Below are positions 135 through 16,610 of a stretch of 42,031 nucleotides of DNA, in pieces. Each line of letters starts with the position of its first letter. The stretch's first letter is position 1. The notes under the pieces were generated by a model. That model worked only from the letters and a program-made list of their open reading frames with translations. It made no database searches and was not told where the DNA came from. The position numbers and the translations under genes were made by a program. This DNA comes from Acidimicrobiia bacterium (GTDB taxonomy: Bacteria; Actinomycetota; Acidimicrobiia; Spongiisociales; JAHEDJ01), in assembly GCA_029210695.1 (NCBI GenBank), contig JARGFH010000034.1:1-42031 (forward strand), read 5' to 3'.

Positions 135-1085
135 CTAGCCCCCGCTGCCGGTCTCCCCAGCCGGAGGCTCGGTCGGAGCATCGGAGGGGGCCTCTGCGGG
201 GACGATCAAGCCGCAGGCGATGAGCGTCTCCTCGGCCGGCGCTCCTCCGAAGCGGATTCGTTCGAAGGCGGTGACGGCGCGGAGTTCTTCATCGCTGAGG
301 TCGGCTTCGAAGCCCGGCATACCACCCTGGACGGGTTTTGCCTCGGCGCCGTACGTGCTGCCGACGGCAACGCTCCAACCGTCCGAGCCGAGGGTGATCC
401 ACTTGATGTGGTCGTCACAAGTCGGCCAGGTGACGATCACTGCCCCGCCCGCCATGGCCGGGCCGGTGCCGCCCTGGCCGTTGGCGCCGTGACACGATGC
501 ACACTGCGCTCCGGCGGTGTACACCTCCTGGCCGAGGGCGAGCAAGGATGCAGCTTCCGCGCCGCCGCCCCCGCGGCCCTCGAAGGGAGTGCCATCACAG
601 TTCACGAGGGAACCATCAAACGCCACCTCGAGGCGGCCGCCGTCACCGCAGGCGACTCCGTTGGAGTTCACGACCAGGTAGAGCAATCCGAAGAGTGGGA
701 TCACCAGGAAGGCGGCCACCATCCAGGGGGAGAAGGCCGAGCGGCGCCCGACCGTCTCAGCCATGACGTGGGCAGCGGTGGGCGTGATGGGCGGCGCCTC
801 TTCAGCGGACTGCTGTGCAATCGCTGCGGTTGGTGGTTGCTCCTCCAACTTCGGGGGAGCTTCGTCCGGGCGGGATTCCTCGGGAGACGGAGCTCGAGAC
901 GGCTGAATACTCTCCGCCGGCTCAGTTGCAGCAGGCTGCGGCGGAGGTGCTCCACCGGTCCAGGCAGCCAGGATCTCTTCGGGTGACGATCCGGTCGCGG
1001 CGGCGCGAGCCTCCGCCGACCTGCGGATGAGCGCTTCGGATGCTCCATATTGCCCGGCGAGAGTGGTGATGTGTTCGTTGCTCAC
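135..1085 (-). CDS. Membrane-anchored monohaem cytochrome c with N-terminal helical module and Pro/Ala linker
   Basis: GTG at 1085 overlaps the upstream stop (GTGA). One TM helix (WMVAAFLVIPLFGLLYLVV), CASCH haem motif and GGMPGF distal Met. Confidence 0.85.
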   Translation of the reverse strand: MSNEHITTLAGQYGASEALIRRSAEARAAATGSSPEEILAAWTGGAPPPQPAATEPAESIQPSRAPSPEESRPDEAPPKLEEQPPTAAIAQQSAEEAPPITPTAAHVMAETVGRRSAFSPWMVAAFLVIPLFGLLYLVVNSNGVACGDGGRLEVAFDGSLVNCDGTPFEGRGGGGAEAASLLALGQEVYTAGAQCASCHGANGQGGTGPAMAGGAVIVTWPTCDDHIKWITLGSDGWSVAVGSTYGAEAKPVQGGMPGFEADLSDEELRAVTAFERIRFGGAPAEETLIACGLIVPAEAPSDAPTEPPAGETGSGG

Positions 1086-1897
1086 TTGGATTCCAGGAGA
1101 TAGTCGACGAGGTCCTCGATATCGCCGGCGGACAGGTATCCGAACGAGGCATGTTTGCTCCCGGCCCTGAGGGCCTCCGGATCCTCGAGATAACCGGTCA
1201 GCCAGACAGGATCGTCGGTCGGCGGGCGGGATCCGATGTGGGTGAGATCTGGTCCGTTGCGCCGGAGACCGGGGACCAGCGGACTCCCAGACAGCGTGAC
1301 GATCCCGAGGTCGGCGTCGGTGACCACCGGCCGGACCTGCTGGGTGTGGCAGAACGCACAACCCTGAGCCAGATAGACATCCCGGCCGTGTTCGGCGCCG
1401 GCCGACAGAACGATCGGATCCACCGCATCGAGCACCTGGGCATTGCCGGCCGAGGCGGGAGCGATGACCGCGGCAAAGAACATGATGGCGAAGAGGGCTA
1501 TGGCGCCGAGGAGCAGCGAGCTGAGTGTCCCGCCCGGCATCGGCGCTGGCTCATCCATCGCGACCGGCGCAGAGAGAACGGCTGCCGCAAGCGGGGTGGG
1601 TGCCGGTGGAGCTTCGGCCGGGACGGCTTCCGGTTCCGGTCGCACTACGGCCTCTTCGGACTCTGGCTGATCAGTCGCCTCGACCTCGACGGGTTCGGGA
1701 GTGATCGCCATCGATTCGGGCGCTTCGACGACGGCCGGGGTCGAGGCTGCCGGCGGTGGACTGCCGCCGGCCCAGGCGTTCAGCACAGCCTCGGTAGCGG
1801 CTCCCTGGGCGGAGGCACGCGCCGCCGCCGAGCGCTGAATCAGGGCGGCAGAAGCACCGAAGCGCTCGGCGAGGACGTCGACGACTTCCTTACTCAC
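1082..1897 (-). CDS. cbb3-type oxidase subunit II-like (CcoO/FixO-like) monohaem cytochrome c
   Basis: GTG at 1897 overlaps the upstream stop. TM helix followed by GRDVYLAQGCAFCHTQQVRP...RRNGPDLTHIGSR, which matches CcoO motifs. Confidence 0.85.
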   Translation of the reverse strand: MSKEVVDVLAERFGASAALIQRSAAARASAQGAATEAVLNAWAGGSPPPAASTPAVVEAPESMAITPEPVEVEATDQPESEEAVVRPEPEAVPAEAPPAPTPLAAAVLSAPVAMDEPAPMPGGTLSSLLLGAIALFAIMFFAAVIAPASAGNAQVLDAVDPIVLSAGAEHGRDVYLAQGCAFCHTQQVRPVVTDADLGIVTLSGSPLVPGLRRNGPDLTHIGSRPPTDDPVWLTGYLEDPEALRAGSKHASFGYLSAGDIEDLVDYLLESK

Positions 1898-3317
1898 CTT
1901 CGGCCTCCGCGGGAATGAGGACCTCGTGGGCGATCGGCGTTCCAGAGGTAATGGTCCTGTAGATGACGTAGCCGTGCACGAGTTGACCGACGAAGGTGAT
2001 GAGAACACCGACCAGTGCGAGGGATCGCAGGAGGGAGATGGCGTCGAGAGTCTGGGTGAAACCGTCTCCGGTGTTGACGTATGCGCCGCTGTACGTTGCG
2101 CCCGTCCAGGTGAACCCGGCAACCAGACCGGTCAACCAGAGGAACACCGAGGTCGACGTCACTCCGATCATGGTGAGACGGAGGTGCCATTCGGCCAGGC
2201 GGTCATCGTAGAGATCCCGGCCGAGCATCCGCGGCAGTGCGGCATAGATGAATGCGGCGGCAATCCAGCCTCCGATTCCGAACAAGAGGAAGAACGACGT
2301 TCCGTCCCACCATGCGGTGAGTCCGACTATCGAGGCGACCGACCGGAACCCGGCGAGGGCCGAGAGCGCGATCGGAACCGGTAGCAGAGCGGTGGCGGCC
2401 AGCACGAAACGCAAGGGCACCGACGATCGCACCAGGTCCCACCGGCCGCGCACAGTGGCGGTGGCGTTGACGAACGCCGTGATGGCTACCACGACGAGTA
2501 CGAGACCCAACACGATCGCTGAGGTTTCGAGCCAGTCAGGTGCAGGACCGTGGGTGAATCTGGAGTATCCGGATGCCCCTCCTGCGAGGGCGAGTGTCCA
2601 GAAGCCGATGCGGGCGATCTGTTCGCTGAACAGCGGTCCCTCCGTCAGCTTTGGAATGAGGTAGAGCGCGATGCCCAGCGCGGCGCCGACGATCCAGAGA
2701 TAGTGGAAGGCTGCCGTAGTGAATGAAGACAGTAGAGAGACACCTACCGGGTTGAGACCGGGGAGATTGGACACGCCGGCAATGACGGGCAGCCAGACAA
2801 TTGCTGCGGCCGTGTACAGCAGAGATGCGGGCGGGGTAATTCTCGATCTGGATCTGAGCGTTGCGGTGACGACGAACGCCGGGACTACGAGCCCCGCCAG
2901 CAGGAGAAAGTCCGCCCACTGTGGGAACTCGAACAACTCGAAGCCATCACCCGCGCCAAGGCCTATGGCTCCCGTGCCCAGGAGGACGACACCGGCCAGG
3001 TACCAGACGTTCAAGCCGGCGAGTCTTCTGTAACGGAGCGGGGAACCACCGAGTCGAGGAACGAGGTAGTAGGCAGCACCGATCAGTGTCGGAGTGAGCC
3101 ACCCGAACATCGTGACGGCAGCGGCCATTGGACGAAGTCGTCCGTACGTCCAGAACCCCAACCCATCCAGGAACGCCGGGAAGACGCCCTTGATGAATTG
3201 CACCAACGTGAGGAATCCTGCCAGGAGAAGGAAGGCTGTCCCTAACAACAGGTGTCGTCGAGCGACCGGGTCGCTGTCGATCGAAGAGGCTGAGTTGTGG
3301 TGCGTCTCAGCGACCAA
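1890..3317 (-). CDS. cbb3-type oxidase subunit I-like (CcoN-like) protein lacking the His ligands
   Basis: TTG at 3317 after GAAGGGA. About 12 TM helices. Retains YGRLRP, YYLVPRL, YLIPK, PDW and LPRMLGRDLY..LAEWH, but the canonical ligand histidines are absent. Confidence 0.8.
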   Translation of the reverse strand: MVAETHHNSASSIDSDPVARRHLLLGTAFLLLAGFLTLVQFIKGVFPAFLDGLGFWTYGRLRPMAAAVTMFGWLTPTLIGAAYYLVPRLGGSPLRYRRLAGLNVWYLAGVVLLGTGAIGLGAGDGFELFEFPQWADFLLLAGLVVPAFVVTATLRSRSRITPPASLLYTAAAIVWLPVIAGVSNLPGLNPVGVSLLSSFTTAAFHYLWIVGAALGIALYLIPKLTEGPLFSEQIARIGFWTLALAGGASGYSRFTHGPAPDWLETSAIVLGLVLVVVAITAFVNATATVRGRWDLVRSSVPLRFVLAATALLPVPIALSALAGFRSVASIVGLTAWWDGTSFFLLFGIGGWIAAAFIYAALPRMLGRDLYDDRLAEWHLRLTMIGVTSTSVFLWLTGLVAGFTWTGATYSGAYVNTGDGFTQTLDAISLLRSLALVGVLITFVGQLVHGYVIYRTITSGTPIAHEVLIPAEAEGE

Positions 3318-3425
3318 CGCGGGTCCCTTCAGGTCGTTGTGGCGACCAGAGACTAATGGATGGTCGGGGTAGGTGCCGCTCAGGGGACGCGCGACGCGAT
3401 CGTCACATGTGTTGAACCGTCGGCA

Positions 3426-3448
3426 GCAATTGGCAATTGGCAATTGGC
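3426..3448. repeat. Heptamer tandem repeat (GCAATTG)x3
   Basis: Read directly in the divergent intergenic region. Confidence 0.9.
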
Positions 3449-3587
3449 TCAGGCGACGACCGAATCCGTGACGAGCAGGCGGATCACGGTCTGGCTGTGA
3501 GGCGACTAAAGTCCCGCTGCCGGAAGGAAGTGCTCGGCTAGGGTCGACCTGCCCCGGCACCGAAGCGAGTTTGAGGGCGATATCGCA

Positions 3588-4214
3588 GTGCACCGTCTTA
3601 GTCAGCTCGACGACATGCAGAGGAGGCGGCTGGGTTCCGCTCTGTTCTCGGTTGGGCTCTTCCTCCTCGCCTTCGGCGTTCTGTTCGCCCATTACTCCGG
3701 GTTTCCGGAAGGGGAGCGCGTTGACTATTTCGGTTGGTTCCCGCGCGGCTGCATGCTCGGCTCCGAGCGCTGTGTTCCCTGGTCCACCGGCGGCCAGCTC
3801 ATCGCGGCGGCCGGTTCGCAGCTCGCCATCGCCGGCGCTCTCCTCCTGTGGGTCGCCAATCAGAGGATGACCTGGGCGAGGGCCGGGTTTGCCGCGCTGC
3901 TGACGTGGCTCGAATTCGTGATCATCTTCGGCATCGTTCCGTCGGAGTGGCTCAATCTCAGCCAGGGACCGCTGGAGCTGACCAGACAACGAATCGCTCT
4001 CACCATTCCCTCCTGGCTGGTCCTTGGCAACGATGTATCGATCAGTTGGGCTGCCGTGAAGGATGCCATCTCCGGTGGGTACAACCTGGGGGTGCTCGGT
4101 GCTGCAATCGTCTTCGCGTTCAAGATCCAGGATTGGGGCAAAGCGAAACCCAAGGCCGTAATTGTCGAGAAGACTTCACTGTACGGCCGGCCTCTCACGA
4201 GGGGAGAGCGCTGA
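3588..4214 (+). CDS. Hypothetical membrane protein (about 4 TM), first gene of the Rieske/cytochrome b operon
   Basis: Hydrophobic helices. Its stop overlaps the ferredoxin ATG (TGATG). Confidence 0.75.
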   Translation: MHRLSQLDDMQRRRLGSALFSVGLFLLAFGVLFAHYSGFPEGERVDYFGWFPRGCMLGSERCVPWSTGGQLIAAAGSQLAIAGALLLWVANQRMTWARAGFAALLTWLEFVIIFGIVPSEWLNLSQGPLELTRQRIALTIPSWLVLGNDVSISWAAVKDAISGGYNLGVLGAAIVFAFKIQDWGKAKPKAVIVEKTSLYGRPLTRGER

Positions 4215-4666
4215 TGGCCCGCACGGACGCCTGGATCGAAGCGCCTCCATTTCGCGACGATTATCAGTTGACGCTCGTGGACACCGACACCGTTCAGAAG
4301 GCCGTCCGCCCCAAGCAGTTCCTCCATATCGACCAGGCCGAGTGCATTCTCTGCGAGGGATGCGTTGACATCTGCCCGTGGAAGTGCATTCACTACCTCT
4401 CGCTCGATGCTATCGACGAGGCGTTCGGAGTCGAGGATCCGTCAGAGGAAGAGGGCGCCTTCGGGTTCTTCGTGGTTGATGAGGAGGCATGCACCCGTTG
4501 CGCACTGTGTATCGATCGGTGTCCAACGAACGTGATCACCCTCGGCAAGTTCGCGGGATCGGTTTCAGACAGTGCGCGAGAAGCGGGCGTCCTGGAGGCG
4601 CCCTGGAAAGTCGACACAGGGCAGCGGGATTTCAAGAACGGGTACGCCTACGGCGTCCGCTGGTAA
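4214..4666 (+). CDS. 2x[4Fe-4S] dicluster ferredoxin
   Basis: [12 protein letters not shown] and [12 protein letters not shown] motifs. No signal peptide. ATG at 4214. Confidence 0.92.
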
Positions 4667-4682
4667 CGGGAAGGTACGGAAC

Positions 4683-5471
4683 GTGGCGAACGGGAACGGC
4701 AAGACTGGATTGCTGAACACGGTGCAGGAGAAGGCGACGGAACTCGGCGACCGCGTAACGAGCAGTCAGGCCTGGGACTCGGTGTTCCGGCCCGGATCAC
4801 CATTCAAGAAGGGCCACACAGATAGTCCCAGGAACCGGTCGTACGTGGTGATGAACAACGTGCTGTATCACTTGCACCCGGTGAAGGTGAAGCGCCACGG
4901 CGTCCGTCTCTCTTATACGCTCTGTTTGGGCGGCCTGAGCTTCTTTCTGTTCATTCTGCTCACGATTACCGGCATCTTCCTCATGTTCTACTACCGCCCG
5001 ACCGCCGAGGCCGCCTACGTCGATGTGGCCGCCCTCTCGACCAGCGTCGCCTTCGGGTCGCTGGTCAGGAACATGCACCGGTGGGGGGCTCACCTCATGG
5101 TTCTCACCGTGTTCCTGCATATGAGCCGCGTGTTCTATCACGGCGCCTACAAGCCCCCTCGCGAGTTCAACTGGGTGATCGGCGTTGTGCTGTTGCTCCT
5201 AACTTTGTTGCTGTCGTTCACCGGGTATCTCCTTCCGTGGGATCAGCTCGCCCGCTGGGCAGTGACGGTCGGCACCAACATGGCCGGGTTCGTTCCGATC
5301 TTCGGCGACCAAGTGCGATTCGCATTACTGGGGGCGGCCGATGTCTCGGCCGACACATTGCTGCGCTGGTATGTCCTCCACGTGCTCTTCCTGCCCTTCA
5401 TCATCGTTGTGTTCATGGCCGTACATTTCTGGCGAGTCCGCAAAGACGGCGGCATCTCAGGCCCGCTGTAA
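4683..5471 (+). CDS. Cytochrome b6-like (split cytochrome b, N-terminal part)
   Basis: YTLCLGG (haem ci Cys), [36 protein letters not shown] and C-terminal GISGPL. GTG at 4683 follows GGAAGG. Confidence 0.93.
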
Positions 5472-5480: not shown

Positions 5481-7178
5481 TTGGTCGATATCCCAGAAGA
5501 ACTCCTCCGGCGATCTGCCGCAGCACGAGCTGCCGCCACGGGCGTACCCGTCGATGAGGTGCTGGCCGAGATGCGAGCTGCGGTAGGGAGCACCGCCTCG
5601 GCGCCACGGGTCGAGGACGCTCCTACCGACGGCGAACCAGAACATCCGACGACGCTGTCCGACGATCTCCTCACTCGCGAGGCGGCGGCCCGGGCCAGGG
5701 TCCTGGGCGTCCCGGAAGCTGATGCCGTGGCGGAGTTGAAGGGCGAGAAGGAACTCGTCATACCGCCGTCCGCCAAGAAGCAGGAGGAGAAGGCGCCGGC
5801 GGAATCGCAGGCTCCGGTAGAAGCACTGGTCGAGAATGAACCGCCGAGCGCTCCTGTGGCAGATACACCGGCAGTGCCCTTGCTCGGGGCCGGAGGCGAG
5901 ATCGATTACGCAGCGGCGGCGCTGGCAGTGGGTATGCCCGAGGCGCTGCTCAAGCGAAGCGTAGAAGCCAAAGCAAAGGCCAGGGGTCTCGATCCGGTTG
6001 CCGTCCTTGCTGAGATGACCGGCGGGAGCGTCGAAACCGTGGTGGAACCCGTTGCAGTTGCGATGGAGCCGGCTTCAGAGGCTGCCCCCCCTACACCCGC
6101 CCCAACCGTGGCAGGTCCTGCCGGCGAACTCGATTGGGCGGCGGCTGCGAGTGCGGCCGGTATGCCGGAGAAGTTGTTCAGGCGGAGTGTGGAGGCGAAG
6201 GCGAANNNNNNNNNNNNNNNNNNNNNNNNNNNNNNNNNNNNNNNNNNNNNNNNNNNNNNNNNNNNNNNNNNNNNNNNNNNNNNNNNNNNNNNNNNNNNNN
6301 CGGCGGTGGTGCTGGCCGAGATGACCGGGCAATCGGTGCCTGCTGCTCCGGCGGTGGCGGCGGCTGCACCGGTGGCACCGGCAGTCTCTGCAGCTGCGGC
6401 GGTGAGTGCCGGTGAACTCGATTGGGCGGCGGCTGCGAGTGCGGCCGGTATGCCGGAGAAGTTGTTCAGGCGGAGTGTGGAGGCGAAGGCGAAGGCGAAG
6501 GGGGTTGATCCGGCGGTGGTGCTGGCCGAGATGACCGGGCAATCGGTGCCTGCTGCTCCGGCGGTGGCGGCGGCTGCACCGGTGGCACCTGCAGTCTCTG
6601 CAGCTGCGGCGCCGTCTGCTGCCCCTGCTGCGGCCACGGCCACGATCCCCAAGGATGTCCGGCCCCAGCGCTTGCTCACCGTGGTCAAGGCCAGGGCAAT
6701 CCAGCAGGTCAAGGCTGAGCCGAGCGACAAGGTCAGCACTTGGCCGCACTTGCTCCTCATCGAGTTTGTTGCCCTGCTGGCGGTAACGGCACTGCTAATC
6801 GTCATGTCGGTTGTGATTCAGGCGCCATTGCTGGAGGCGGCCAACGCCAACGTCACGCCCAATCCATCTAAAGCACCCTGGTATTTCCTCGGACTCCAGG
6901 AACTGTTGACCTACTTCGATCCCCAGATCGCCGGTGTGACCGTGCCGACGATCATCGGTTTGTTCGGCTTCATGGCTATCCCTTACCTCGACCGCAACCC
7001 GTCGAACAAGCCGGCGGATCGCAAGTTCGCCATCTTCATGTATACGTTCTTCATCATGGGCGCAGCAACACTGACGATCATCGGCACGTTGTTCCGCGGA
7101 AGGGGCTTCAACTTCACCTACCCGTGGACCGACGGCATCTTCTTCGATGACCTCAAAGACTGGATCAACTTCGAATGA
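5481..7178 (+). CDS. Cytochrome b subunit IV-like (PetD-like) protein with a long N-terminal repeat region; spans the N-gap
   Basis: TTG after AGGAG. C-terminal TWPHLL...APLLEAANANVTPNPSKAPWYFLGLQELL...IPYLDRNP with 3 TM helices. About 390 aa of N-terminal repeats. Confidence 0.88.
   Translation: MVDIPEELLRRSAAARAAATGVPVDEVLAEMRAAVGSTASAPRVEDAPTDGEPEHPTTLSDDLLTREAAARARVLGVPEADAVAELKGEKELVIPPSAKKQEEKAPAESQAPVEALVENEPPSAPVADTPAVPLLGAGGEIDYAAAALAVGMPEALLKRSVEAKAKARGLDPVAVLAEMTGGSVETVVEPVAVAMEPASEAAPPTPAPTVAGPAGELDWAAAASAAGMPEKLFRRSVEAKAXXXXXXXXXXXXXXXXXXXXXXXXXXXXXXXXXAVVLAEMTGQSVPAAPAVAAAAPVAPAVSAAAAVSAGELDWAAAASAAGMPEKLFRRSVEAKAKAKGVDPAVVLAEMTGQSVPAAPAVAAAAPVAPAVSAAAAPSAAPAAATATIPKDVRPQRLLTVVKARAIQQVKAEPSDKVSTWPHLLLIEFVALLAVTALLIVMSVVIQAPLLEAANANVTPNPSKAPWYFLGLQELLTYFDPQIAGVTVPTIIGLFGFMAIPYLDRNPSNKPADRKFAIFMYTFFIMGAATLTIIGTLFRGRGFNFTYPWTDGIFFDDLKDWINFE
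6118..6611 (+). repeat. Near-identical 210-nt (70-aa) intragenic tandem repeat containing the assembly gap
   Basis: CGGCGGTGGTGCTGGCCGAG recurs at 6301 and 6511. GAACTCGATTGGGCG recurs at 6126 and 6414. Ns occupy 6206-6300. Confidence 0.9.
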
Positions 7179-8029
7179 CGGCTACCCAGATTGTCCTGGT
7201 CGCGATCATCGCTGTGGCGGTGCTGGCCGCGTTGGCGGCCTTTTCGATCGCCTCTCGAAAGGCCGGTCCTGATTGGAGAGCGGGGATGGACGGGCGCGCT
7301 CTCCGGGAGGATCGATCCAGGGTGTTGGTGGCTGCCGCCCCAGCCGTGGTGGAGGCTGACGAGGAAGAAGCCAGGGCCGAAGTCGAGGCACCCGTCGAGC
7401 CGGCCGGCGTCCGCCCGGTTGAGGTGGCCCGAATCGAAGAAGTCTCGGCAGATGAGGCCGGCGTGACGAGGCGGCAGTTCTTCAACAGGGCGACTCTGGC
7501 ACTCTTCGGAACGTTCTCGGTAGCAATGGGTGGCAGCATGCTTGCGTTCATTTGGCCCAACCTGAAAGGCGGATTCGGATCGGACATCGATGCCGGCCCC
7601 ATCGACGAGATCCGCACCCAGGTCTTCCAGGCGGACGGTTCCATTACGCCGCTATTTCGGCCGGATGCACGGGCCTACATCGTTCCCATCACCGACGAGG
7701 AGCTGGCAGGCTCACAATTCGTCGACAAGAGCCTGGCGGCCGGTGGCTTCATGGCGTTGTTCCAACGTTGCGTGCATCTGGGGTGCCGGGTCCCCTGGTG
7801 CAACACATCGCAAGGTTTCGAATGCCCGTGCCATGGTTCGAAATACAACTACACCGGGGAGTACGAGGCTGGACCGGCGCCCCGCAACCTCGATCGCTTC
7901 GTGGTCGAACTGCAGAACGATCGGTTCATCATCAAGACCGGGCAGATCATCGAGTCGCCGCGGGCACCGGAGAAGTCGGTGTCGTATCCGCAGGGGCCTT
8001 CCTGCATCGCCATCGAGAGCGCGGGGTAG
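7175..8029 (+). CDS. Rieske [2Fe-2S] protein of a menaquinol:cytochrome c reductase
   Basis: Internal Tat motif TRRQFF, CVHLGC, CPCHGSKY and GPAPRNL. There is an extra N-terminal TM helix. Confidence 0.95.
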   Translation: MTATQIVLVAIIAVAVLAALAAFSIASRKAGPDWRAGMDGRALREDRSRVLVAAAPAVVEADEEEARAEVEAPVEPAGVRPVEVARIEEVSADEAGVTRRQFFNRATLALFGTFSVAMGGSMLAFIWPNLKGGFGSDIDAGPIDEIRTQVFQADGSITPLFRPDARAYIVPITDEELAGSQFVDKSLAAGGFMALFQRCVHLGCRVPWCNTSQGFECPCHGSKYNYTGEYEAGPAPRNLDRFVVELQNDRFIIKTGQIIESPRAPEKSVSYPQGPSCIAIESAG

Positions 8030-8032: not shown

Positions 8033-9478
8033 GTGTCGGGAAGCCTCATCATTGCCATCGTTTCGGCAGCCGTGATCTCATGGCTTGCCTACATCTTGTC
8101 GGTGACAATGAAGAAGCAAGAGAATCCCGACCCCGGTCCCAACCGCCGCCGGCCGCTCTCGGATGAGAATCTGGAGACGCGGCGACTCGACCGCTGGCTG
8201 GCAGCCGCGGTTGTCTTCTCGGGGTTCCTGGCCGTCTCACTCCCGTTCTACTTTCTCACCGAGCAGAACCGCCAGGAGAGCTTCGTCGACGCTTTCGACG
8301 AAGAAGCGGTCGCCCGCGGCTCGCACCTCGTTGCCGAGTTCGCCTGCGAGAGCTGCCACGGCCCCGGGTTCGTAGGTGGAGCAGCCTCCTACGTCGAGAA
8401 GCGGAGCGACATCTCCGTGAGCTGGGCGGCTCCCGCCCTCGATGACATCTTTTACCGTTACGAGGCCGATGAAGTGCGATTCTGGCTCGTATACGGCAGG
8501 GCCAATAGCCCGATGCCTGCCTGGGGCCTGGCGGGGAATGGCCCGATGAACGATCAGCAGATCGACGATCTCATCGCCTATCTCGCCTCAATCGAGATCA
8601 GCCAGGAAGAAGCTCTCTCCAAGGCAGACACCGGAGTCACCGTGGCATTGAATCGTCTCGCCAACGCCGAAACGACCGTCGAACAGTCGGTGGCCGAGCA
8701 GGAGACGCTGATCGCGGAAATCGAGGCCGCGCCCGAGTTGTTGACGGTGGCGGAGAGTTTCGAGCAGCGCGCAGTTGCTGCCCTCGAATCCGCCGACACG
8801 GGCCGCGATACCGATGGTGACGGTATTTCCGATGTCGCGGAGACCGAGATCGCGGCGGTCACCGTCGCGGCGGCCGAGGCAGGCCTGTCTTTCGGCGGCT
8901 CGACGGTCGCTCCGGTTCTGCTGGACCCGGGCAACCCGGAGTCGACCCTCGGTGTGCCCGACCTACAGGCTGCTCGCACTGCGGTCTCCTCCCTCTCCTC
9001 GTTGGCTACCAACCTCCGCACAACGGCCGAGAATCAAGGCCCGCTCCTGACCAGGGCGCAATCCGGCCTCGACTTCCTCGTCGCTGCCCGGGACAACCAG
9101 CTGTGGGCCGTCGATGTCGAGCAGATCGCCGCGGTTACCTTCGGTGGCAACCGCGACGATGCAGAGCGCGCCGTCGGTTTGTTCAACTCCTACTGTGCCC
9201 GCTGCCACACGGCCGGGTATTCCGCCGGGGTCGCCTACACGGAGGAGTCCGGATCGGGCGCGTTGGGCCCGGCGCTCTGGAACGGTCGGGCGAACGTGCA
9301 GTTCGAGTCGGCGGACGACATGGTCGATTTCATCGCCAACGGATCCGAACTCGGCAAGGCGTACGGTGTCAACGGAGTCGGCAGGGGATACATGCCTGGA
9401 TTCGGGAAGGTCCTCACCCAGAGAGACCTCGAGCTGGTGGTTGAGTACCTGCGCGGCGAAACGCTACGGGGGTTCTGA
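8033..9478 (+). CDS. Membrane-anchored dihaem cytochrome c
   Basis: Two N-terminal TM helices, CESCH...MPAWG and CARCH...MPGFG, separated by a long helical spacer. Confidence 0.9.
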   Translation: MSGSLIIAIVSAAVISWLAYILSVTMKKQENPDPGPNRRRPLSDENLETRRLDRWLAAAVVFSGFLAVSLPFYFLTEQNRQESFVDAFDEEAVARGSHLVAEFACESCHGPGFVGGAASYVEKRSDISVSWAAPALDDIFYRYEADEVRFWLVYGRANSPMPAWGLAGNGPMNDQQIDDLIAYLASIEISQEEALSKADTGVTVALNRLANAETTVEQSVAEQETLIAEIEAAPELLTVAESFEQRAVAALESADTGRDTDGDGISDVAETEIAAVTVAAAEAGLSFGGSTVAPVLLDPGNPESTLGVPDLQAARTAVSSLSSLATNLRTTAENQGPLLTRAQSGLDFLVAARDNQLWAVDVEQIAAVTFGGNRDDAERAVGLFNSYCARCHTAGYSAGVAYTEESGSGALGPALWNGRANVQFESADDMVDFIANGSELGKAYGVNGVGRGYMPGFGKVLTQRDLELVVEYLRGETLRGF

Positions 9479-9994: not shown

Positions 9995-10624
9995 CTACCC
10001 CCGGTCGTTGCGCACGTAGTAGCCCAGGATCTGCAGTTCGGTCGACAAATCGACCCGGCGCACGGCGGCGTTGTCCAGGTGGAGCACCGTCTGCGCGAAG
10101 TTCAAGATCGACCGGATGCCACAGTCCTCGAGTTGCTGTGCGACTTCCTGGGCAACCGCAGTCGGAGTAGTGATGATGCCGATCTCGACGTCATGCTCGG
10201 CGACGTCGGCTGCGAGGTGGCGGAGGTGGCGAACCTCGAGGTCGCCGATCCTGGTCCCGACTTTCTCGGGGTTTGTGTCGTAAAGCCCGACGATGTGGAA
10301 CCGGGCTGCGCCGAAGTTGTCGTAGCTGGCCAGCGCAGCACCGAGATTGCCGATGCCGACGATCACGACACCGAAGTCCCGGGTGAGGCCTAGCGCCTCC
10401 CGGATCTGCTGACCCAGCACCGCGCTGTCGTATCCAACCCCCCGTACCCCGTGGGTGCCCAGGAACGACAGATCCTTTCGGACCTTGGCGGCGTTGACGT
10501 TGACTCGACTGGCCAGGATCTCAGATGAGATCGTTCCCATCCCTTCAGACTGGAGGGTCTCGAGTGCGTAGAGATAGAGGGGGAGTCGGGCGACCGATGC
10601 CGGCGGGATTGTGACTGACTTCAC
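9995..10624 (-). CDS. rex: Redox-sensing transcriptional repressor Rex
   Basis: IPPASVARLPLY, VRKDLSFLG, GVRGVGY, VGIGNLG and ILNFA motifs. Confidence 0.96.
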   Translation of the reverse strand: MKSVTIPPASVARLPLYLYALETLQSEGMGTISSEILASRVNVNAAKVRKDLSFLGTHGVRGVGYDSAVLGQQIREALGLTRDFGVVIVGIGNLGAALASYDNFGAARFHIVGLYDTNPEKVGTRIGDLEVRHLRHLAADVAEHDVEIGIITTPTAVAQEVAQQLEDCGIRSILNFAQTVLHLDNAAVRRVDLSTELQILGYYVRNDRG

Positions 10625-10636
10625 AAATCGAATTTA
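10609..10636 (-). promoter_or_regulatory. Rex operator overlapping the rex start codon, with a candidate -10 box
   Basis: TTGTGACTGACTTCACAA (10609-10626) is one mismatch from TTGTGAA-N4-TTCACAA. TAAATT on the minus strand (10636-10631) lies 6 nt before the GTG. Confidence 0.8.
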
Positions 10637-10701
10637 CCCGCCTGAGGGCCAGATCCCGCAATTCACGGTCCCTCCGGGGGGCGGGTAGGCTCCCGCCCCT
10701 G

Positions 10702-11940
10702 ATGACAGCTCCCGATGTGGTGGTCGTCGGCGGAGGGCCTGCTGGCTCTGCCGCCGCATTCTGGCTGGCGAGTGCCGGCCATTCTGTGACGCTGGTCGAG
10801 AAGAAGGCCTACCCCCGGGAGAAGACCTGCGGAGACGGGCTCACCCCGCGAGCGATCCTCCAGTTGCAGGAGCTCGGGTTCGATTTCGATGTTCCACAGT
10901 TCCACCGGGTTCACGGCTTGCGGTCGTATGCAGGAGACAATCTCAAACTCGAAATGGAATGGCCCGACCATTCGATCTATCCGAATTGGGGTGGGGTGAT
11001 TCGCCGGGCCGATCTCGATCAACAGGTGGCGCTGCTGGTCGAGAAGCAGGGAGCGACGATCCGGCAGCAGGTCGAAGCTACGCCTGTGATCGAAGACGGC
11101 CGCCTGACCGGGGTGGAGCTCAATCACAACGGCGAGACCGAGGTGCTCAACCCGAAGGTGGTCGTAGTCGCCGACGGATCGTTGAGCCGGTTCGGGTGGA
11201 GCCTCGGGACGAGCCGGCGGCGCGACTACCCGCTCGGCCTGGCTGCCCGTGGCTACTTCTCGTCTCCTCGTTCGGACGATGGCTTCCTCGAGAGTCAGCT
11301 CGACATTCGGGATGAAACCGGGGCTGCAATGCCGGGGTACGGGTGGGTGTTTCCGCTCGGAGACGGCACCGTCAACGTCGGTGTTGGGCTGTTGTCGACC
11401 TTCAAACGCTGGAAGCATGTCAACACGAACGACATGATGGCGGCCTACGTTCGTTCGGCTCCCGACTACTGGGAGCTCTCGGAGGCGTCTCAGCTCACCA
11501 AGCCGCGGGGCGGCAAGCTGACGATGGCCCTCTCCGTTGGGCCACTGGCAGGGCCCAACTGGCTCGTCGCCGGCGACGCAGCCGGGGCCATCAACCCGTG
11601 GAACGGGGAAGGCATCTCCTATGCCTACGAGACGGGCCGGATCGCCGCCGACCACATTTCGGCTGCCCTGGCCGGCGACGACCTCTCCCTGCTGCAACGC
11701 TATCCGCAGTTTCTGCAGGACACCTACGGCGACTACTACAAGATGGCCCGAATCTTTGTGAAGGCGATCGGGCAGCCTTTGGTGATGCGGACGTTGACCC
11801 ATACGGGATTGCGGTCCAAGCCTCTGATGGAATGGGTGCTCAAGGTGATGGCCAACTTGCTGGAGCCCGAGGAGAAATCGATCGGCGACCAGGCGTACCG
11901 CCTGCTCGAAGGAATCGTCAGGGCCGCCCCCCGCATTTGA
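10702..11940 (+). CDS. Geranylgeranyl reductase family protein, probable menaquinone reductase (MenJ-like)
   Basis: VVGGGPAG, YPREKTCGDGLTPRA, PGYGWVFP and GDAAGAINPWNGEGI. Lies just upstream of the nuo region. Confidence 0.88.
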   Translation: MTAPDVVVVGGGPAGSAAAFWLASAGHSVTLVEKKAYPREKTCGDGLTPRAILQLQELGFDFDVPQFHRVHGLRSYAGDNLKLEMEWPDHSIYPNWGGVIRRADLDQQVALLVEKQGATIRQQVEATPVIEDGRLTGVELNHNGETEVLNPKVVVVADGSLSRFGWSLGTSRRRDYPLGLAARGYFSSPRSDDGFLESQLDIRDETGAAMPGYGWVFPLGDGTVNVGVGLLSTFKRWKHVNTNDMMAAYVRSAPDYWELSEASQLTKPRGGKLTMALSVGPLAGPNWLVAGDAAGAINPWNGEGISYAYETGRIAADHISAALAGDDLSLLQRYPQFLQDTYGDYYKMARIFVKAIGQPLVMRTLTHTGLRSKPLMEWVLKVMANLLEPEEKSIGDQAYRLLEGIVRAAPRI

Positions 11941-11999
11941 AACGGTTTTCGGGCGACGGTGTTGTCATAGAGCGCAAATGCGGCGCGATCGATTGTGAA

Positions 12000-12914
12000 T
12001 CAGGTGCGCTCGGCGCGACTCACCAGGTAGGCGCCTCCGATGGTGACTACGACACCTATCAGCTGGATCGGCTCGACGCGCTCTGCCAGCACCAGGAAGC
12101 CCAGGACCAGAGCGACGATCGGTACGAGGTATGCGACCACCGACCCGCGCGAGGCGCCGACGCGTCCGGCTAGGGCGAGCTGCGTCGCCCTAGCAACGCC
12201 GGTCCCTACGACGCCGAGGATGACTACTGCCAGCACGGGCACCCATTCGAATGATGAACGAGCGAGCCCGGTGAATCCGATCGGGATGAGCGCCACGGAG
12301 GCGACGGAAAGGGTGCGAAGCGTCACGGCCATCGCCCCGTAGCGTTGCTGGAGGGGCACTAGGAGGTTGTTGGCGACGCCGTAGCAAACGACTGCCGTCA
12401 GCACGTAGGCGATCCCAAGTGCCGAACCCACCTCGCCTCCGAGTGTCGGAATCGATAGGAGAACGATCCCGGAGAAGCCGACTGCCAGGCCGATGCGTTG
12501 GCGCATCCCCGGGAGCCTGCGCATCAACAGCGCAGCAACCGTGGCGGTGGCGATGGGGATGCCGCTGACCAGCATCCCGGCGACGGCCGAGGCGATCCGC
12601 TCTTCGGCCGCCGCGAACAGCCATGCCGGCGCCGCCTGTCCGACGACGCCGAGGAAGGCGATTCGACTCCAGTCGCCCCGGGCGACGGGGGAGCGGGACC
12701 TGGCGAACAGGGCCAGCGCGCCGGCACCCAGTGCGACTCTCCCGAAGGCGATCACCCCCGGCGTGAGCGATCGGAGTCCGAGGGCCATCCAGAGAAAGGC
12801 AGACCCGAAGACCAGACCGTTGAACGCCACCAGTGCCCAGTGCGAAGGAGTGAACGCCTCCCGATGGGTGCCCTCGGAGGTCGTGAAGATGGCGATTCGG
12901 GGCGGCTGCGTCAT
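12000..12914 (-). CDS. DMT/EamA family transporter
   Basis: About 10 TM helices in two EamA-like halves. Motif YLVPIVALVLGFLVLAE. Confidence 0.9.
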   Translation of the reverse strand: MTQPPRIAIFTTSEGTHREAFTPSHWALVAFNGLVFGSAFLWMALGLRSLTPGVIAFGRVALGAGALALFARSRSPVARGDWSRIAFLGVVGQAAPAWLFAAAEERIASAVAGMLVSGIPIATATVAALLMRRLPGMRQRIGLAVGFSGIVLLSIPTLGGEVGSALGIAYVLTAVVCYGVANNLLVPLQQRYGAMAVTLRTLSVASVALIPIGFTGLARSSFEWVPVLAVVILGVVGTGVARATQLALAGRVGASRGSVVAYLVPIVALVLGFLVLAERVEPIQLIGVVVTIGGAYLVSRAERT

Positions 12915-12922
12915 GATGAACC

Positions 12923-12972
12923 GTTTTCGCGCGGGGATCGCACCCTATACGGTTCGATTCCCGCGCGAGAAC
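12923..12972. repeat. About 50-bp palindromic REP-like element, copy 1
   Basis: GTTTTCGCGCGGGGATC...CACCCTATA...GATTCCCGCGCGAGAAC. A second copy lies at 36561-36612. Confidence 0.8.
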
Positions 12973-13094
12973 AGTTGCCGGGAGGGCCGACTCGTGACAG
13001 GCGACCCACCGGTAAGCGACTTACGGCCCCGTCTTTGGTTTTTGTGGTGCTACCCGAACCTCTAGTCTTGCGGCGGGAAAGAAGAGGAGCTCCG

Positions 13095-13511
13095 TTGGAT
13101 CTGGCCGCATACGTGCCCGTGGCTTTCATGTTCCTGCTCGTGATGGCATTCGCCGCCGTCACCCTCGTTCTCTCTCGTCTCGTCTCTCCGAATCGCCCGA
13201 CTCCCGAGAAGCTTGCCCCCTACGAGTGCGGCATCGTTCCAGAGGTTGAGCCGGTCCAGCGCTTTCCCGTCAAGTTCTATCTCGTTGCGATGCTCTTCGT
13301 CATCTTCGATATCGAGATCATCTTCCTCTTCGCCTGGGCTGTGAACTTCCGTGAGCTCGGCTGGTTCGGTGTCGCCTCCGTGGGGATTTTCACGCTGCTC
13401 GTCCTCGAGACCCTCGGCTACGTATGGAAACGCGGCGCGCTCGACTGGAACGTGCCCCGCCGCGCCCGCCAGGTATCCGTCGGGACCGTCGTCGACGAGG
13501 AAGCCGCCTGA
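13095..13511 (+). CDS. nuoA: NADH-quinone oxidoreductase subunit A
   Basis: TTG after AGGAG. PYECG and [14 protein letters not shown] motifs. Confidence 0.95.
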
Positions 13512-13981
13512 TGGCTCACCCGGCCAACCCACCCGGCTTCCTGCTCGCCAACCTCGACAAGGTGAGGCACTGGGCCCAGACCCGGTCGATGTTCACCGTC
13601 ACCTTCGGTCTAGCCTGCTGCGCCATCGAGATGATGGCCACCGGGGCCGGCCACTACGATCTTGCCCGCTTCGGTATGGAGGTCTTCAGGGCGTCGCCAC
13701 GACAGGCGGACCTCATGATCGTGGCCGGCCGGGTCTCACAGAAGATGGCGCCCGTACTTCGCCAGGTCTACGACCAGATGCCGGAGCCCAAATGGGTGAT
13801 CTCGATGGGTGCGTGCGCCTCCACCGGCGGAATGTTCAACAACTACGCACTCGTGCAGGGCGTTGATCAGATAGTGCCAGTTGACATCTACATCCCCGGC
13901 TGCCCTCCCGGGCCGCAGTCGCTGATGCACGGGATTCTGACCTTGCACGACAAGATCATGAGCGGGGAGATCGCTCACTAA
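13511..13981 (+). CDS. nuoB: NADH-quinone oxidoreductase subunit B
   Basis: [20 protein letters not shown] and PGCPP motifs. Confidence 0.97.
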
Positions 13982-14514
13982 TGACAGATGATCAGGCAAT
14001 CGACGTGCAAGAAGAGAAAACTCCTTCCCGCACACTGCCCGACCAGGCGGTCCTACGGGCGATCGCCGAGCAGTTCGATGACATCGAATGGACCCTGTCG
14101 ACCGGCCAGGATGTGTTCATGGTTCCCAAGGACCGGGTGCTGGACATCGTCCAGGCGGCGAAGGATGCCGGATTCGAGTTGCTGGCAGATCTGACGGTGA
14201 CCGACTACTTCCGAGGCAGATCCCCCCGGTTCGAACTGGTCATCAACTTGTTGTCGATGCAGCACCAACTCCGACTCCGCCTCCGTGCCCCGGTCCCGGT
14301 CGAAAACGTGCATGTGCCATCGGTGGTTGGTGTATACCCGGGAGCGAACTTCTACGAACGTGAAGCATTCGATCTGTTCGGTCTGGTATTCGACGGCCAT
14401 CCAGACCTGACCCGCATCCTGATGCCGGACGAGTGGGAGGGACATCCGTTGCGCAAGGACTTCGGGATGGGGTCCGTACCGGTGCAGTTCAAAGACTCTC
14501 ATCAGGTGCAATGA
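13981..14514 (+). CDS. nuoC: NADH-quinone oxidoreductase subunit C
   Basis: EREAFDLFG, GHPDLTRIL and GHPLRKDF motifs. Confidence 0.96.
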   Translation: MTDDQAIDVQEEKTPSRTLPDQAVLRAIAEQFDDIEWTLSTGQDVFMVPKDRVLDIVQAAKDAGFELLADLTVTDYFRGRSPRFELVINLLSMQHQLRLRLRAPVPVENVHVPSVVGVYPGANFYEREAFDLFGLVFDGHPDLTRILMPDEWEGHPLRKDFGMGSVPVQFKDSHQVQ

Positions 14515-14515
14515 C

Positions 14516-15877
14516 ATGACCGACCAAAAACGCAGAGACAAGCGCCACGTCGACGTCTGGTTGACCGGCACCGAAGAGCCCGATTGGCTCGTCGACTCAA
14601 CCGACGAGGGTGCCCAGAAGATGGCGGCTCACGAGACCGCGGCTCGACTCCTCGATCAAGAGGGCCTGGTTGTAGGCGATGACCGGGTCCTGGACGAGGA
14701 TGTTGCCCCCGAAGACGAGTTGATGATCATCAACATGGGCCCCCAGCATCCCTCGACGCACGGCGTGCTGCGCCTCAACATCGAACTCGAGGGCGAGATC
14801 ATCCGTCGTTCCAAGCCGATCATCGGCTACCTGCACACCGGCATGGAGAAGACCGGCGAGGAGCTCACCTGGCTCCAGGGACCCACCAACGTCACCCGGA
14901 TGGACTACCTCGCACCCTTCCACAACGAACTCGTCTTCTCGCTGGCCGTTGAGAAGTTGCTCGGGATCGACATCCCACCTCGCGCTCTGGCCATCCGTGT
15001 TCTGATGACCGAACTGAACCGGGTGTCGAGCCACCTGGTCGCTCTGGCGACCAACGGCATGGATATCGGGGCACTTTCGATGATGTTGTACGGGTTCAGG
15101 GACCGTGAGCGCATTCTCGCCTTCTTCGAGAAAACGACCGGCTTGCGCATGAACCACAACTACATCCGGCCGGGAGGCGTCGCCGCCGACCTTCCGCCCG
15201 ACTGGCAGGAAGACATCGAGTTCATCCTCGACAAAGTCCCACCCCGGATGCTGGAGTACGAAGATCTCCTCAAAGCCAACCCGATCTGGATGGGGCGCAC
15301 CATCGGTGTCGGAGTCATCACGCTCGAGGAGTGCCTCGCTTACTCCGTGACCGGTCCGACCCTCCGGGCCGCCGGGAGCGATTGGGATCTGCGCAAGGCT
15401 TTCCCCTATTCCGGTATCGAGAACTATCACTTCGAGGTACCGGTCGGCGAGCGAGGAGACGTCTACGACCGCTATCGGGTCCGGGTCGAGGAGATCTGGC
15501 AGTCGCTCTCGATCGTCAAGCAGGCGGCGGAATCAATGCCGGAAGGCGACTACAAGACCGACGATCGCAAGGTGGCGCCGCCACCGCGAGCTCGCATCGA
15601 CGAGTCGATGGAAGCCCTGATTCACCATTTCAAGATCTACACCGAGGGATTCCAGGTTCCCGAGGGTGAGGCGTACGTGGCGATCGAGTCACCCCGGGGA
15701 GAACTCGGTGCCTACCTCGTCTCTGATGGTGGATCCCGGCCCCTACGGATGCATATGCGGACACCATCGTTCGCCAATCTGCAAGGCCTTCCGGTGATGA
15801 TGGCCGATTCGCTCATCGCCGACACCGTTGCCACGATCGCCTCGCTCGATCCCGTCCTGGGAGATGTGGACCGGTGA
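14516..15877 (+). CDS. nuoD: NADH-quinone oxidoreductase subunit D
   Basis: NMGPQHPSTHGVLRL, GYLHTGMEK and terminal GDVDR. Confidence 0.97.
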   Translation: MTDQKRRDKRHVDVWLTGTEEPDWLVDSTDEGAQKMAAHETAARLLDQEGLVVGDDRVLDEDVAPEDELMIINMGPQHPSTHGVLRLNIELEGEIIRRSKPIIGYLHTGMEKTGEELTWLQGPTNVTRMDYLAPFHNELVFSLAVEKLLGIDIPPRALAIRVLMTELNRVSSHLVALATNGMDIGALSMMLYGFRDRERILAFFEKTTGLRMNHNYIRPGGVAADLPPDWQEDIEFILDKVPPRMLEYEDLLKANPIWMGRTIGVGVITLEECLAYSVTGPTLRAAGSDWDLRKAFPYSGIENYHFEVPVGERGDVYDRYRVRVEEIWQSLSIVKQAAESMPEGDYKTDDRKVAPPPRARIDESMEALIHHFKIYTEGFQVPEGEAYVAIESPRGELGAYLVSDGGSRPLRMHMRTPSFANLQGLPVMMADSLIADTVATIASLDPVLGDVDR

Positions 15878-15932
15878 AGACTTCTCGCTTCGCTCGCAGC
15901 CGTGAATTGACCTCCGTTCCTGAGAGGGTCTC

Positions 15933-16610
15933 ATGAGCTGGCCGGCCGAGACCATCGCCCGGGCAAACGACATCATTGCTCGCTATCCGGAGAAGCGGTC
16001 GGCCGTCATGCCGCTGCTGTACATAGCAATGAGAGAAGAAGGCCGGCTCACCGATGAGGGAATGCGCCATGTGGCCGAGCTGACCGGTTTGACTCCCGCC
16101 CAGGTTCAGTCCGTCGCCTCCTTTTACGTCATGTACAAGACGGAGTCGCAGGGAAAGTACCTGGTCTCAGTCTGCAGTTCTATCTCGTGCTTCCTACTCG
16201 GCGCCGATGAGGTTCTGCACGCCGTCGAGGAAGCAGCCGGAATTCCGGCCGGCGAGGCCGACGACGAAATCGGCGTCGAGCACGCCGAGTGCATCGGTGC
16301 TTGCGGTGGCGCTCCCGCCTGTCTCGTCAACTATGAACTGGTCGAAGGGGTCACGCCGGCAAAGGCCAAAGAGATGATCGAATGGCTCCGCAATGCCAAG
16401 CCGGAGGTCATCAACGCCGATGAGCTGCAGACCCTGTTCGGCGGCAGGCGCAGCTTTGACTGGGCGATCAAGGAAGACAACGGAGCGATCGGCCCATATC
16501 CGGCGTTCCCCCCGTTTGGCACTGCAGCTCATAACACGCCGGCCCTGGAGCCGGGACGACTCGCACCGAGTGGCTCGCGACCTGCCACCTCCGAAGGGGG
16601 CGCTTCGTGA
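15933..16610 (+). CDS. nuoE: NADH-quinone oxidoreductase subunit E
   Basis: RSAVMPLL, CSSISC and CIGAC ([2Fe-2S] ligands). Confidence 0.95.
   Translation: MSWPAETIARANDIIARYPEKRSAVMPLLYIAMREEGRLTDEGMRHVAELTGLTPAQVQSVASFYVMYKTESQGKYLVSVCSSISCFLLGADEVLHAVEEAAGIPAGEADDEIGVEHAECIGACGGAPACLVNYELVEGVTPAKAKEMIEWLRNAKPEVINADELQTLFGGRRSFDWAIKEDNGAIGPYPAFPPFGTAAHNTPALEPGRLAPSGSRPATSEGGAS

Follow-up and report, generated by a model that had tools for sequence, protein, structure and literature searches.

A haem-copper oxidase subunit I homologue without its six ligand histidines, encoded beside a b6-type Rieske/cytochrome b operon in an Acidimicrobiia bacterium

Results

A CcoN-like gene lies at the head of one of two divergent respiratory gene clusters

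The window analysed here is a stretch of 42,031 nucleotides from an Acidimicrobiia bacterium (assembly GCA_029210695.1, contig JARGFH010000034.1, positions 1 to 42,031 of the forward strand). Near its left end, genes for a cytochrome c, a CcoO-like protein and a CcoN-like protein face, across a short intergenic region, genes for a membrane protein of no known family, a ferredoxin, a cytochrome b6, a subunit IV, a Rieske protein and a dihaem cytochrome c (Table 1). The subject of this work is the CcoN-like gene (1890–3317, minus strand), whose product an earlier note, made from the sequence alone, had described as an intact haem-copper oxidase subunit I homologue in which all six histidine ligands are replaced.

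The reading frame runs from TTG to TAA over 475 codons without an internal stop. Its start codon is uncertain: the public gene call amounts to 600 residues and would enter the divergent neighbour gene, and the alignments of relatives begin at about residues 1–16 of the 475-residue form. The protein matches Pfam COX1 (PF00115) with 116.9 bits (cut-off 34.8), residues 19–428 corresponding to positions 3–424 of the 436 of the profile. It is also recognized by the NCBIfam ccoN model TIGR00780 (E = 2.9e-36), yet its score of 125.4 bits falls below the equivalog cut-off of 583.15; NCBIfam release 20 contains no model for the ligand-less CcoN-like family. Comparison with solved CcoN chains by phmmer gave matches over nearly the full length (9g83_t, E = 5e-24; 3mk7_A, E = 2e-22).

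An AlphaFold2 model built on 33 relatives (mean predicted local distance difference test score (pLDDT) 87.4, predicted template modelling score (pTM) 0.89) comprises twelve long helices. Its top Foldseek matches are the CcoN chains 9g83_t, 3mk7_A, 6xkw_n and 8smr_E, with TM-scores of 0.86–0.89 over about 460 columns, followed by NorB (0.77–0.81) and then by A- and B-family subunits I. The protein is a full-length haem-copper oxidase subunit I homologue with a 12-helix core, and both its COX1 score and its fold place it in the haem-copper oxidase superfamily. The open frame and the approximately 12 transmembrane helices claimed in the earlier note are thereby borne out.

None of the six ligand columns holds a histidine

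The haem and CuB ligand columns were read in three alignments: HMMER against 3mk7_A, MAFFT with seven canonical CcoN sequences, and hmmalign over all 263 proteins collected. In the CcoN-like protein these columns hold A65, A202, S252, R253, T340 and F342, and no histidine. We take the histidines of Pseudomonas stutzeri CcoN to be assigned as follows: H60 and H347 to low-spin haem b, H345 to haem b3, and H207, H257 and H258 to CuB. On that basis, the haem b columns read A65 and F342, the haem b3 column T340, and the CuB columns A202, S252 and R253. The surrounding motifs have changed from RPLHT to RPMAA, from WWYGHNAVG to SFTTAAFHY, from GPHHL to GYSRF and from IGHVH to DGTSF, exactly as described earlier, so that the reported replacement of all six ligands holds in every detail. 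An alignment artefact was considered as the cause of the apparent ligand loss and rejected, since the three methods agree.

The column of the helix-7 tyrosine (Y251), which we take to be cross-linked to a CuB histidine in canonical CcoN, is occupied by Gly246. The protein contains eight histidines in total (positions 6, 7, 22, 205, 256, 378, 448 and 464), none of them at a ligand column. H205, the residue that had been noticed as lying three positions off register, is indeed three residues from a CuB column and is kept within the genus only; H256 likewise shows no conservation outside the genus. According to PMC10556555, CcoN carries haem b and a haem b3–CuB centre. Because every canonical ligand of haem b, haem b3 and CuB is absent, together with the helix-7 tyrosine, reduction of oxygen (O2) or nitric oxide (NO) by the known mechanism is excluded, in agreement with the earlier note.

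The former catalytic positions are relaxed throughout a clade of ligand-less relatives

Columns that are 95–100% conserved in 98 canonical proteins were compared with the same columns in 105 ligand-less proteins (the clade described below; numbering in the conservation output is 2 lower than that of the window protein, P0001, which is used for its residues here). At the six ligand columns, the commonest residues of the ligand-less proteins are Ala, Ala, Ala, Arg, Thr and Tyr, with frequencies of 0.17–0.62, and none of the residues Met, Cys, Lys, Tyr and Asp/Glu shows conservation at these columns. Two columns that we take to belong to the proton path of canonical CcoN are relaxed as well: the Y251 column is Tyr in 0.99 of the canonical proteins as against Trp, the commonest residue, in 0.35 of the ligand-less ones, and the Y317 column goes from Tyr at 1.00 to Phe at 0.34. 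The Glu of the E122 column and the Arg of the R57 and R437 columns are also weakly conserved in the ligand-less clade. Conservation in this clade falls mostly on Gly, Pro and aromatic residues, together with R60, R88 and R325, as one would expect if packing and partner binding, and not a new active site, had preserved the fold.

These columns bear on two other explanations. One is that the protein still binds a haem or a metal through non-histidine ligands and catalyses a new redox reaction; in the genus, H205 and H256 are close to positions of former ligands, and one or two histidines persist in some related clades. Given that H205 and H256 are not kept outside the genus, that no candidate ligand residue is conserved across the 105 proteins, and that the Pfam families FixS and FixH, which presumably serve cbb3 biogenesis, were not found in the host genome (CcoG and CcoI were not searched for), we consider such a new cofactor site highly unlikely.

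The other is that the oxidase core, once emptied, took on the conduction of ions or protons, powered through conformational or electrostatic effects of redox changes in the c-type cytochromes bound to it or in complex III, as is proposed for the antiporter-like subunits of complex I or the NrfD-like subunits. Cofactor-less ion-translocating membrane subunits are an accepted theme (PMC8076601), and a 12-helix fold that is fully kept, confidently modelled and under purifying selection (see below) would suit this role. However, the relaxation at the Y317 and Y251 columns does not, and the conserved set of Gly, Pro, aromatics and three Arg offers no buried acidic, Lys or His residue as a replacement, which leaves a conducting function improbable.

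The gene is under purifying selection and is present in most genomes of the order

By the Nei–Gojobori method (NG86), the ratio of nonsynonymous to synonymous substitution rates (dN/dS) of the CcoN-like gene is 0.142 against its closest congener (G001; dS 0.40) and 0.13–0.20 against three further congeners, for which dS exceeds 1 and is saturated. These values are close to those of the Rieske protein (0.10) and the dihaem cytochrome c (0.125); cytochrome b6 gives 0.027, the CcoO-like protein 0.33 and the second cytochrome c 0.40. The CcoN-like gene is therefore under purifying selection, albeit looser than that acting on the complex III core.

Of the 41 genomes of the order, 36 have a match at E ≤ 1e-20; among the 31 of high quality, 26 do (these tallies include the unpublished genomes G010 and G021); no match contains an internal stop. 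In the 19 loci retrieved from the order, of which two are partial (L016 and L017), the ligand histidines are absent, except for one histidine of the HH pair in L023. Close orthologues that keep the histidines, which would have pointed to a decaying copy, were thus not encountered among these loci. A single-protein search for related loci returned three, from metagenome-assembled genomes (MAGs) titled Acidimicrobiia bacterium, Actinomycetes bacterium and uncultured bacterium.

Where the CcoN-like match is missing, in five genomes, an orthologue of this cytochrome b6 is missing too: the closest sequence there is 45–57% identical, which is the level of a cytochrome b paralogue that the host genome also carries, at 56%. 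One family accounts for four of these genomes, and an assembly gap may explain the fifth, so that the joint absence represents at most two events. Across the order and outside the genus, CcoN-like proteins are 25–39% identical, as compared with 74–86% for cytochrome b6.

Could the gene be a functionless relic that has not yet been deleted? All its catalytic residues are gone and it changes faster than the neighbouring core genes, as a relic would. Against this stand the low dN/dS in all four comparisons, the intact frames in every match of the 36 genomes, a gene order conserved in 16 of 16 regions (see below) despite divergence to 25–39% identity, and a model that is confident over its full length; a relic is therefore extremely improbable. 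The dN/dS comparison that the earlier note had proposed thus gives purifying selection and no decay, and together with the stop-free matches it led us to reject a pseudogene or decaying copy.

Two membrane-anchored c-type cytochromes accompany the CcoN-like protein

The GTG start of the CcoO-like gene (position 1897) overlaps the stop codon of the CcoN-like gene as GTGAGTAA, with GGAGG 11 nt upstream. Of the translational coupling claimed for this gene pair, the overlap is plainly there, and the coupling itself is what the overlap suggests. The CcoO-like protein matches FixO with 44.8 bits (cut-off 29.6) and carries a CAFCH motif; the second cytochrome c matches Cytochrome_CBB3 with 37.9 bits (cut-off 27) and carries CASCH. 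Against the NCBIfam ccoO and ccoP models, both remain far short of the cut-offs. The arrangement that characterizes a cbb3 operon, namely an adjacent FixO-type monohaem subunit and a further c-type cytochrome, is present.

The CxxCH haem c motif is kept in all 16 CcoO-like genes and in all 16 second cytochrome c genes of the regions fetched from the order. It is also found in 59 of the 62 ligand-poor proteins of at least 590 residues, most of which are CcoN–CcoO fusions; these fusions indicate that the CcoN-like and CcoO-like parts work as one unit.

The sixth-ligand position of the CcoO-like haem is less uniform. Near the C-terminus, the S-x-M-P-x-Y motif that holds the methionine ligand reads S-K-H-A-S-F in the window; the ligand position is His in the genus and in some further genomes, two genomes have Gln there, and many have Met, so that the site is not uniformly constrained. 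A His or a Gln in place of the methionine sixth ligand would lower the potential of a haem. The non-Met position would imply bis-His or other ligation, and a shifted potential, of the CcoO-like haem.

The CcoO-like protein, the second cytochrome c and the subunit IV-type protein of the facing operon have in common an N-terminal motif of about 45 residues (roughly L-L/I-x-R-S-x-x-A-R/K-A-x-A-x-G ... L-A-x-W/M-T-G-G). When the 45,898 six-frame open reading frames (ORFs) of the host genome were searched for it with hmmsearch, one further ORF was found, which makes four in all. This fourth ORF (contig C94, 4398–5594, minus strand) encodes a polytopic membrane protein and adjoins the caa3 genes ctaCDE. 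In the subunit IV-type gene, a run of 95 N (an assembly gap, 6206–6300) falls inside the repeated N-terminal extension and makes the number of motif copies uncertain. Respiratory membrane proteins may use this motif as a shared element for docking on the cytoplasmic side.

The divergent arrangement is conserved in the order

Table 1. Features of the CcoN-like locus and of the facing complex III operon (positions in the window)
Feature	Position	Strand	Remarks
Second membrane-anchored monohaem cytochrome c	135..1361	minus	CcoP-type Cytochrome_CBB3 domain, CASCH, same N-terminal motif as the CcoO-like protein; longest ORF, true start probably further downstream
CcoO-like membrane-anchored monohaem cytochrome c	1082..1897	minus	N-terminal motif of about 45 residues, Ala/Pro-rich linker, transmembrane helix, FixO domain with CAFCH; GTG start
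CcoN-like protein	1890..3317	minus	Haem-copper oxidase subunit I fold, 475 residues, 0 of 6 ligand His; TTG start at 3317 tentative; stop TAA 1892-1890
Divergent intergenic region, 270 bp	3318..3587	none	Between the CcoN-like operon and the complex III operon
Four-helix membrane protein, no known family, 208 residues	3588..4214	plus	First gene of the complex III operon; C-terminal YGRP
2x[4Fe-4S] ferredoxin-like protein	4211..4666	plus	Pfam
Cytochrome b6-type (short, N-terminal) cytochrome b	4572..5471	plus	Pfam match
Subunit IV-type protein (cytochrome b C-terminal part)	5481..7178	plus	Long N-terminal extension, at least 4 copies of the motif of about 45 residues
Rieske [2Fe-2S] protein	7175..8029	plus	Pfam
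Membrane-anchored dihaem cytochrome c	8033..9478	plus	CESCH, CARCH

The nine genes of Table 1 are arranged in the same divergent manner in all 16 regions fetched from the order (12.5–20 kb; one is cut by a contig end), and in this order no Ccm genes intervene in the cluster. The real start of the cytochrome b6 gene is probably downstream of 4572, because the Pfam match begins at residue 112 of the ORF.

The 208-residue membrane protein that opens the complex III operon is present in 16 of 16 regions, with a dN/dS of 0.03 against G001 and an invariant C-terminal YGRP. It matches no Pfam or NCBIfam family, and its model (mean pLDDT 75) has no Foldseek match in the PDB at E ≤ 0.001. In the intergenic region, a scan of positions 3200–3700 for sigma-70 consensus promoters and terminators gave no hit. 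Three tandem heptamers containing the palindrome CAATTG lie at 3427–3447; none of the 16 intergenic regions of relatives has a tandem copy. A look-up of sequencing runs for positions 1082–4214 listed none, RNA runs included.

The rest of the neighbourhood (9995–28274) is also respiratory: a Rex-type redox-sensing repressor (9995–10621, minus strand), a flavin adenine dinucleotide-dependent oxidoreductase, and complex I Pfam matches (12498–28274). No competent oxidase appeared in a Pfam scan of the 29 large ORFs located between 9.9 and 42 kb and of the cluster genes, as the earlier note had stated for the window.

The host genome encodes other terminal oxidases and further cytochrome b paralogues

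The host genome assembly is 97.85% complete and holds two other COX1 genes, both on other contigs. One belongs to a caa3-type A-family oxidase (CtaD, 691.6 bits with a cut-off of 670.75; CtaC with a fused cytochrome c, CSTCH), and the other encodes a ba3-type B-family subunit I (E = 5e-149 against 3eh3_A), in the alignment of which the ligand histidines are visible. Neither a six-histidine CcoN nor a cytochrome bd was found in this assembly. The suggestion that the CcoN-like protein is a partner for a catalytic paralogue is thus not supported and was rejected, and the organism is aerobic through its caa3 and ba3 enzymes.

Two further cytochrome b paralogues (56% and 42% identity) lie at 43446–49257 of contig C94, which also bears the caa3 genes, and a weak cytochrome b-like match on contig C115 (62644–62967) closely follows the ba3 subunit I gene, so that the organism possesses several Rieske/cytochrome b-type systems.

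The CcoN-like module goes with only one of these systems, which, like the Met/His/Gln variation at the CcoO-like sixth ligand and the non-standard, lineage-specific potentials that it suggests, would fit a separate device for electron entry or exit, with two c haems on an inert anchor linking a periplasmic or extracellular partner to the quinone or complex III pool instead of forming a bridge to terminal oxidases. Yet the cluster contains no conserved candidate for a partner enzyme, its remaining neighbourhood being Rex and complex I, and the fact that almost the entire order has it speaks for a housekeeping role. We give such a device little credence.

Ligand-less relatives are widespread beyond the order

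A word-based protein search returned 115 proteins, of which 41 (two partial) have 0 or 1 histidine at the six columns, 73 have all six, and one, partial, has five. When a profile of 33 ligand-less sequences was run against 1.84 billion cluster representatives, 5633 were matched at E ≤ 1e-3, 611 of them with E ≤ 1e-30. In the top 150, 74 full-length and 16 partial proteins lack all six histidines, 25 possess the complete set, and the remainder are intermediates.

A FastTree phylogeny was computed for 241 proteins with a minimum coverage of 80% of the CcoN columns, leaving aside the duplicate P0002 and 22 shorter sequences; the sample is biased, as its members were chosen by similarity to ligand-less queries. 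The window protein falls among 105 representatives, 95 with no ligand histidine and 10 with one. A branch with a support of 1.0 parts these 105 from a group of 92 that holds 75 six-histidine proteins, and the node uniting the 105 has a low support of 0.23. Another 14 ligand-poor proteins form a clade of their own within the six-histidine sequences (support 0.98), which suggests at least two independent losses of the ligands. The earlier note had treated the gene as a single oddity; profile search and tree instead make it a member of a large, old, ligand-less clade.

Intermediate ligand patterns, for instance HQAKEH, HEAPHH and HHQNHH, occur among the metagenomic proteins P0189, P0206, P0219, P0222 and P0236. 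In a sample of 201 genomes from the phylum (including the unpublished genome G120), 28 have a profile match. Their loci include five canonical six-histidine CcoN; one family (f24) mostly keeps the last histidine only, and another (f26) none. Genome G043 (L067/L079) keeps exactly two, at the haem b columns, and no ligand of the binuclear centre. Such intermediates may be haem b-only electron carriers or stages of loss.

Genes for a ferredoxin, cytochrome b6, subunit IV and a Rieske protein lie within about 7 kb of eight of the nine ligand-less f24 and f26 loci, the ninth being cut by a contig end. By contrast, no complex III-type genes were found near three canonical six-histidine loci or near the two-histidine locus. 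At the only f24 locus that is annotated (L073, 2807–9278; genome G091), the complex III genes and the CcoN-like/CcoO-like pair are 6 kb apart, and cytochrome c maturation genes of the CcmA, B, C, E and F type (system I) fill the space.

This proximity of a CcmABCEF cluster would be in keeping with an assembly, maturation or stabilizing factor for c-type cytochromes or complex III that stays outside the mature complex, for example a membrane chaperone holding apo- or holo-cytochromes, and so would the fast evolution of the CcoN-like gene relative to the complex III core. The in-frame CcoO-like fusions of many relatives, however, imply a stoichiometric and permanent partnership, and the window's own order has no Ccm genes in the cluster; an assembly factor thus seems to us unlikely.

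Discussion

The reading that we favour, with a confidence just above even, is that the CcoN-like protein is a non-catalytic scaffold which would hold two membrane-anchored c-type cytochromes on or beside a Rieske/cytochrome b6 complex. It would be a cofactor-less descendant of CcoN, the C-family (cbb3) subunit I, that has kept the 12-helix fold, binds neither haem b nor haem b3 nor CuB, and reduces neither O2 nor NO. As the membrane core of a module derived from CcoN, CcoO and CcoP, and carrying the two cytochromes, it would work with the b6-type Rieske/cytochrome b complex encoded divergently, and would probably sit on it. Electrons might pass from menaquinol through the Rieske protein and cytochrome b6 to the dihaem cytochrome c, then possibly over the two scaffold-held c haems, to caa3 and ba3. 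The 'structural platform' considered in the earlier note is the idea that best fits the intact c-type cytochrome partners, the strict link with the b6-type operon and the lack of a new conserved polar site, and we retain it as a probable role.

A supercomplex ancestor is plausible, because canonical cbb3 docks on bc1 via CcoN, CcoO and CcoP in P. aeruginosa (PMC10556555).

Several observations weigh against the scaffold. In the f24 and f26 families, the CcoN-like and complex III clusters are about 6 kb apart and not adjacent. The CcoN-like gene evolves faster than cytochrome b6 (identity 25–39% vs 74–86%; dN/dS 0.14 vs 0.03), which would suit a loosely constrained accessory protein more than a tightly packed core subunit. 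The two c-type cytochromes have a still higher dN/dS (0.33 and 0.40), which stems in part from low-complexity linkers, and the faster evolution of all three genes would speak against a simple relay role. A variable sixth ligand in the CcoO-like protein would likewise be awkward for a simple relay from complex III to a high-potential oxidase. Finally, related genomes are not independent samples.

A broader proposal, which we put forward more tentatively and hold to be somewhat less probable than not, is that cofactor-less CcoN proteins form a widespread and overlooked class of respiratory subunits: former cbb3 oxidases, having lost all redox centres at least twice independently, would have been exapted as the structural hub of supercomplexes that obligately include a quinol:cytochrome c oxidoreductase. 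In Actinomycetota this partner would be the b6-type Rieske/cytochrome b complex. In the present organism, the hub would tie together complex III, two c-type cytochromes and caa3 or ba3, perhaps via the motif of about 45 residues. Were this so, many 'cbb3 oxidase' calls in metagenome surveys of the phyla concerned would be false evidence for high-affinity oxygen respiration.

There is a practical cost here, as genome surveys count 'cbb3' calls as a capacity for microaerobic respiration, and both NCBI and JGI label members of the family 'cbb3-type cytochrome c oxidase subunit I'. One study that includes MAGs of Acidimicrobiales, for example, names cbb3-type oxidases as part of the respiratory gene set of its genomes (PMC8357290). 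More generally, six histidines define the haem-copper oxidase superfamily, and a large family that is under selection without them shows a second, non-catalytic life of the scaffold. If the CcoN-like protein is integral to a supercomplex of the b6-type complex III, it would provide a testable case of a terminal oxidase turned into a structural subunit, and the complex would represent a kind of actinobacterial complex III not described so far, to which a ferredoxin and a four-helix subunit of no known family have been added.

We found no literature on a ligand-less haem-copper oxidase subunit I, in a search that left most subscription journals and supplements outside its coverage, so that a prior description is possible. 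Similarly, the accessible parts of an article on new nitric oxide reductase (NOR) families (PMC11214002) and of one on the evolution of bc complexes (PMC5600118) make no mention of one.

Comparison with known systems

After the CcoN chains, the closest structural relative is the cytochrome c-dependent NOR, NorBC (3O0R, 4XYD), which is the next-best fold match (TM-score 0.77–0.81) and likewise consists of a subunit I and a cytochrome c subunit with a single haem. NorB, however, has all six histidines, whereas the window protein has none at the same columns; PMC11214002 states that NORs keep all six.

Respiratory subunits that keep an enzyme or transporter fold within a complex, having lost or never possessed redox cofactors, offer an analogy only. 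Such cofactor-less members of respiratory complexes include the antiporter-like subunits of complex I and the inactive, peptidase-like core proteins of mitochondrial bc1, to which the NrfD-like subunits may be added. None of them is homologous to the CcoN-like protein, and none that we found involves a haem-copper oxidase subunit I.

The cbb3 oxidase itself, CcoNOP (3MK7, 8SMR, 6XKW, 9G83), resembles the module of the window in the fold of subunit I (TM-score 0.86–0.89) and in homology over its full length, as well as in an operon in which subunit I overlaps a FixO-type monohaem subunit and is accompanied by a cytochrome c with a CcoP-type domain. The window protein differs from canonical CcoN in lacking the six histidines and the helix-7 tyrosine, in the relaxation of positions that are invariant in the canonical proteins, and in its score (125 vs 583 bits). 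Moreover, the second cytochrome c is monohaem here whereas canonical CcoP is dihaem, FixS and FixH were not found in the host genome, and the CcoN-like gene is always linked in the order to a b6-type Rieske/cytochrome b operon (16 of 16), as against none of three canonical actinobacterial loci.

Finally, the actinobacterial bcc–aa3 supercomplex (7QHM, 6ADQ, 6HWH) comes from the same phylum, and its CtaD is a weaker fold match. In actinobacterial complex III, a membrane-bound dihaem cytochrome c of its own feeds the oxidase without a soluble carrier. The bcc–aa3 supercomplex has a working A-family oxidase and a long QcrB cytochrome b; by contrast, the window has a cytochrome b split into b6 and subunit IV, a ferredoxin, a four-helix membrane protein of no known family and an 'oxidase' that is empty.

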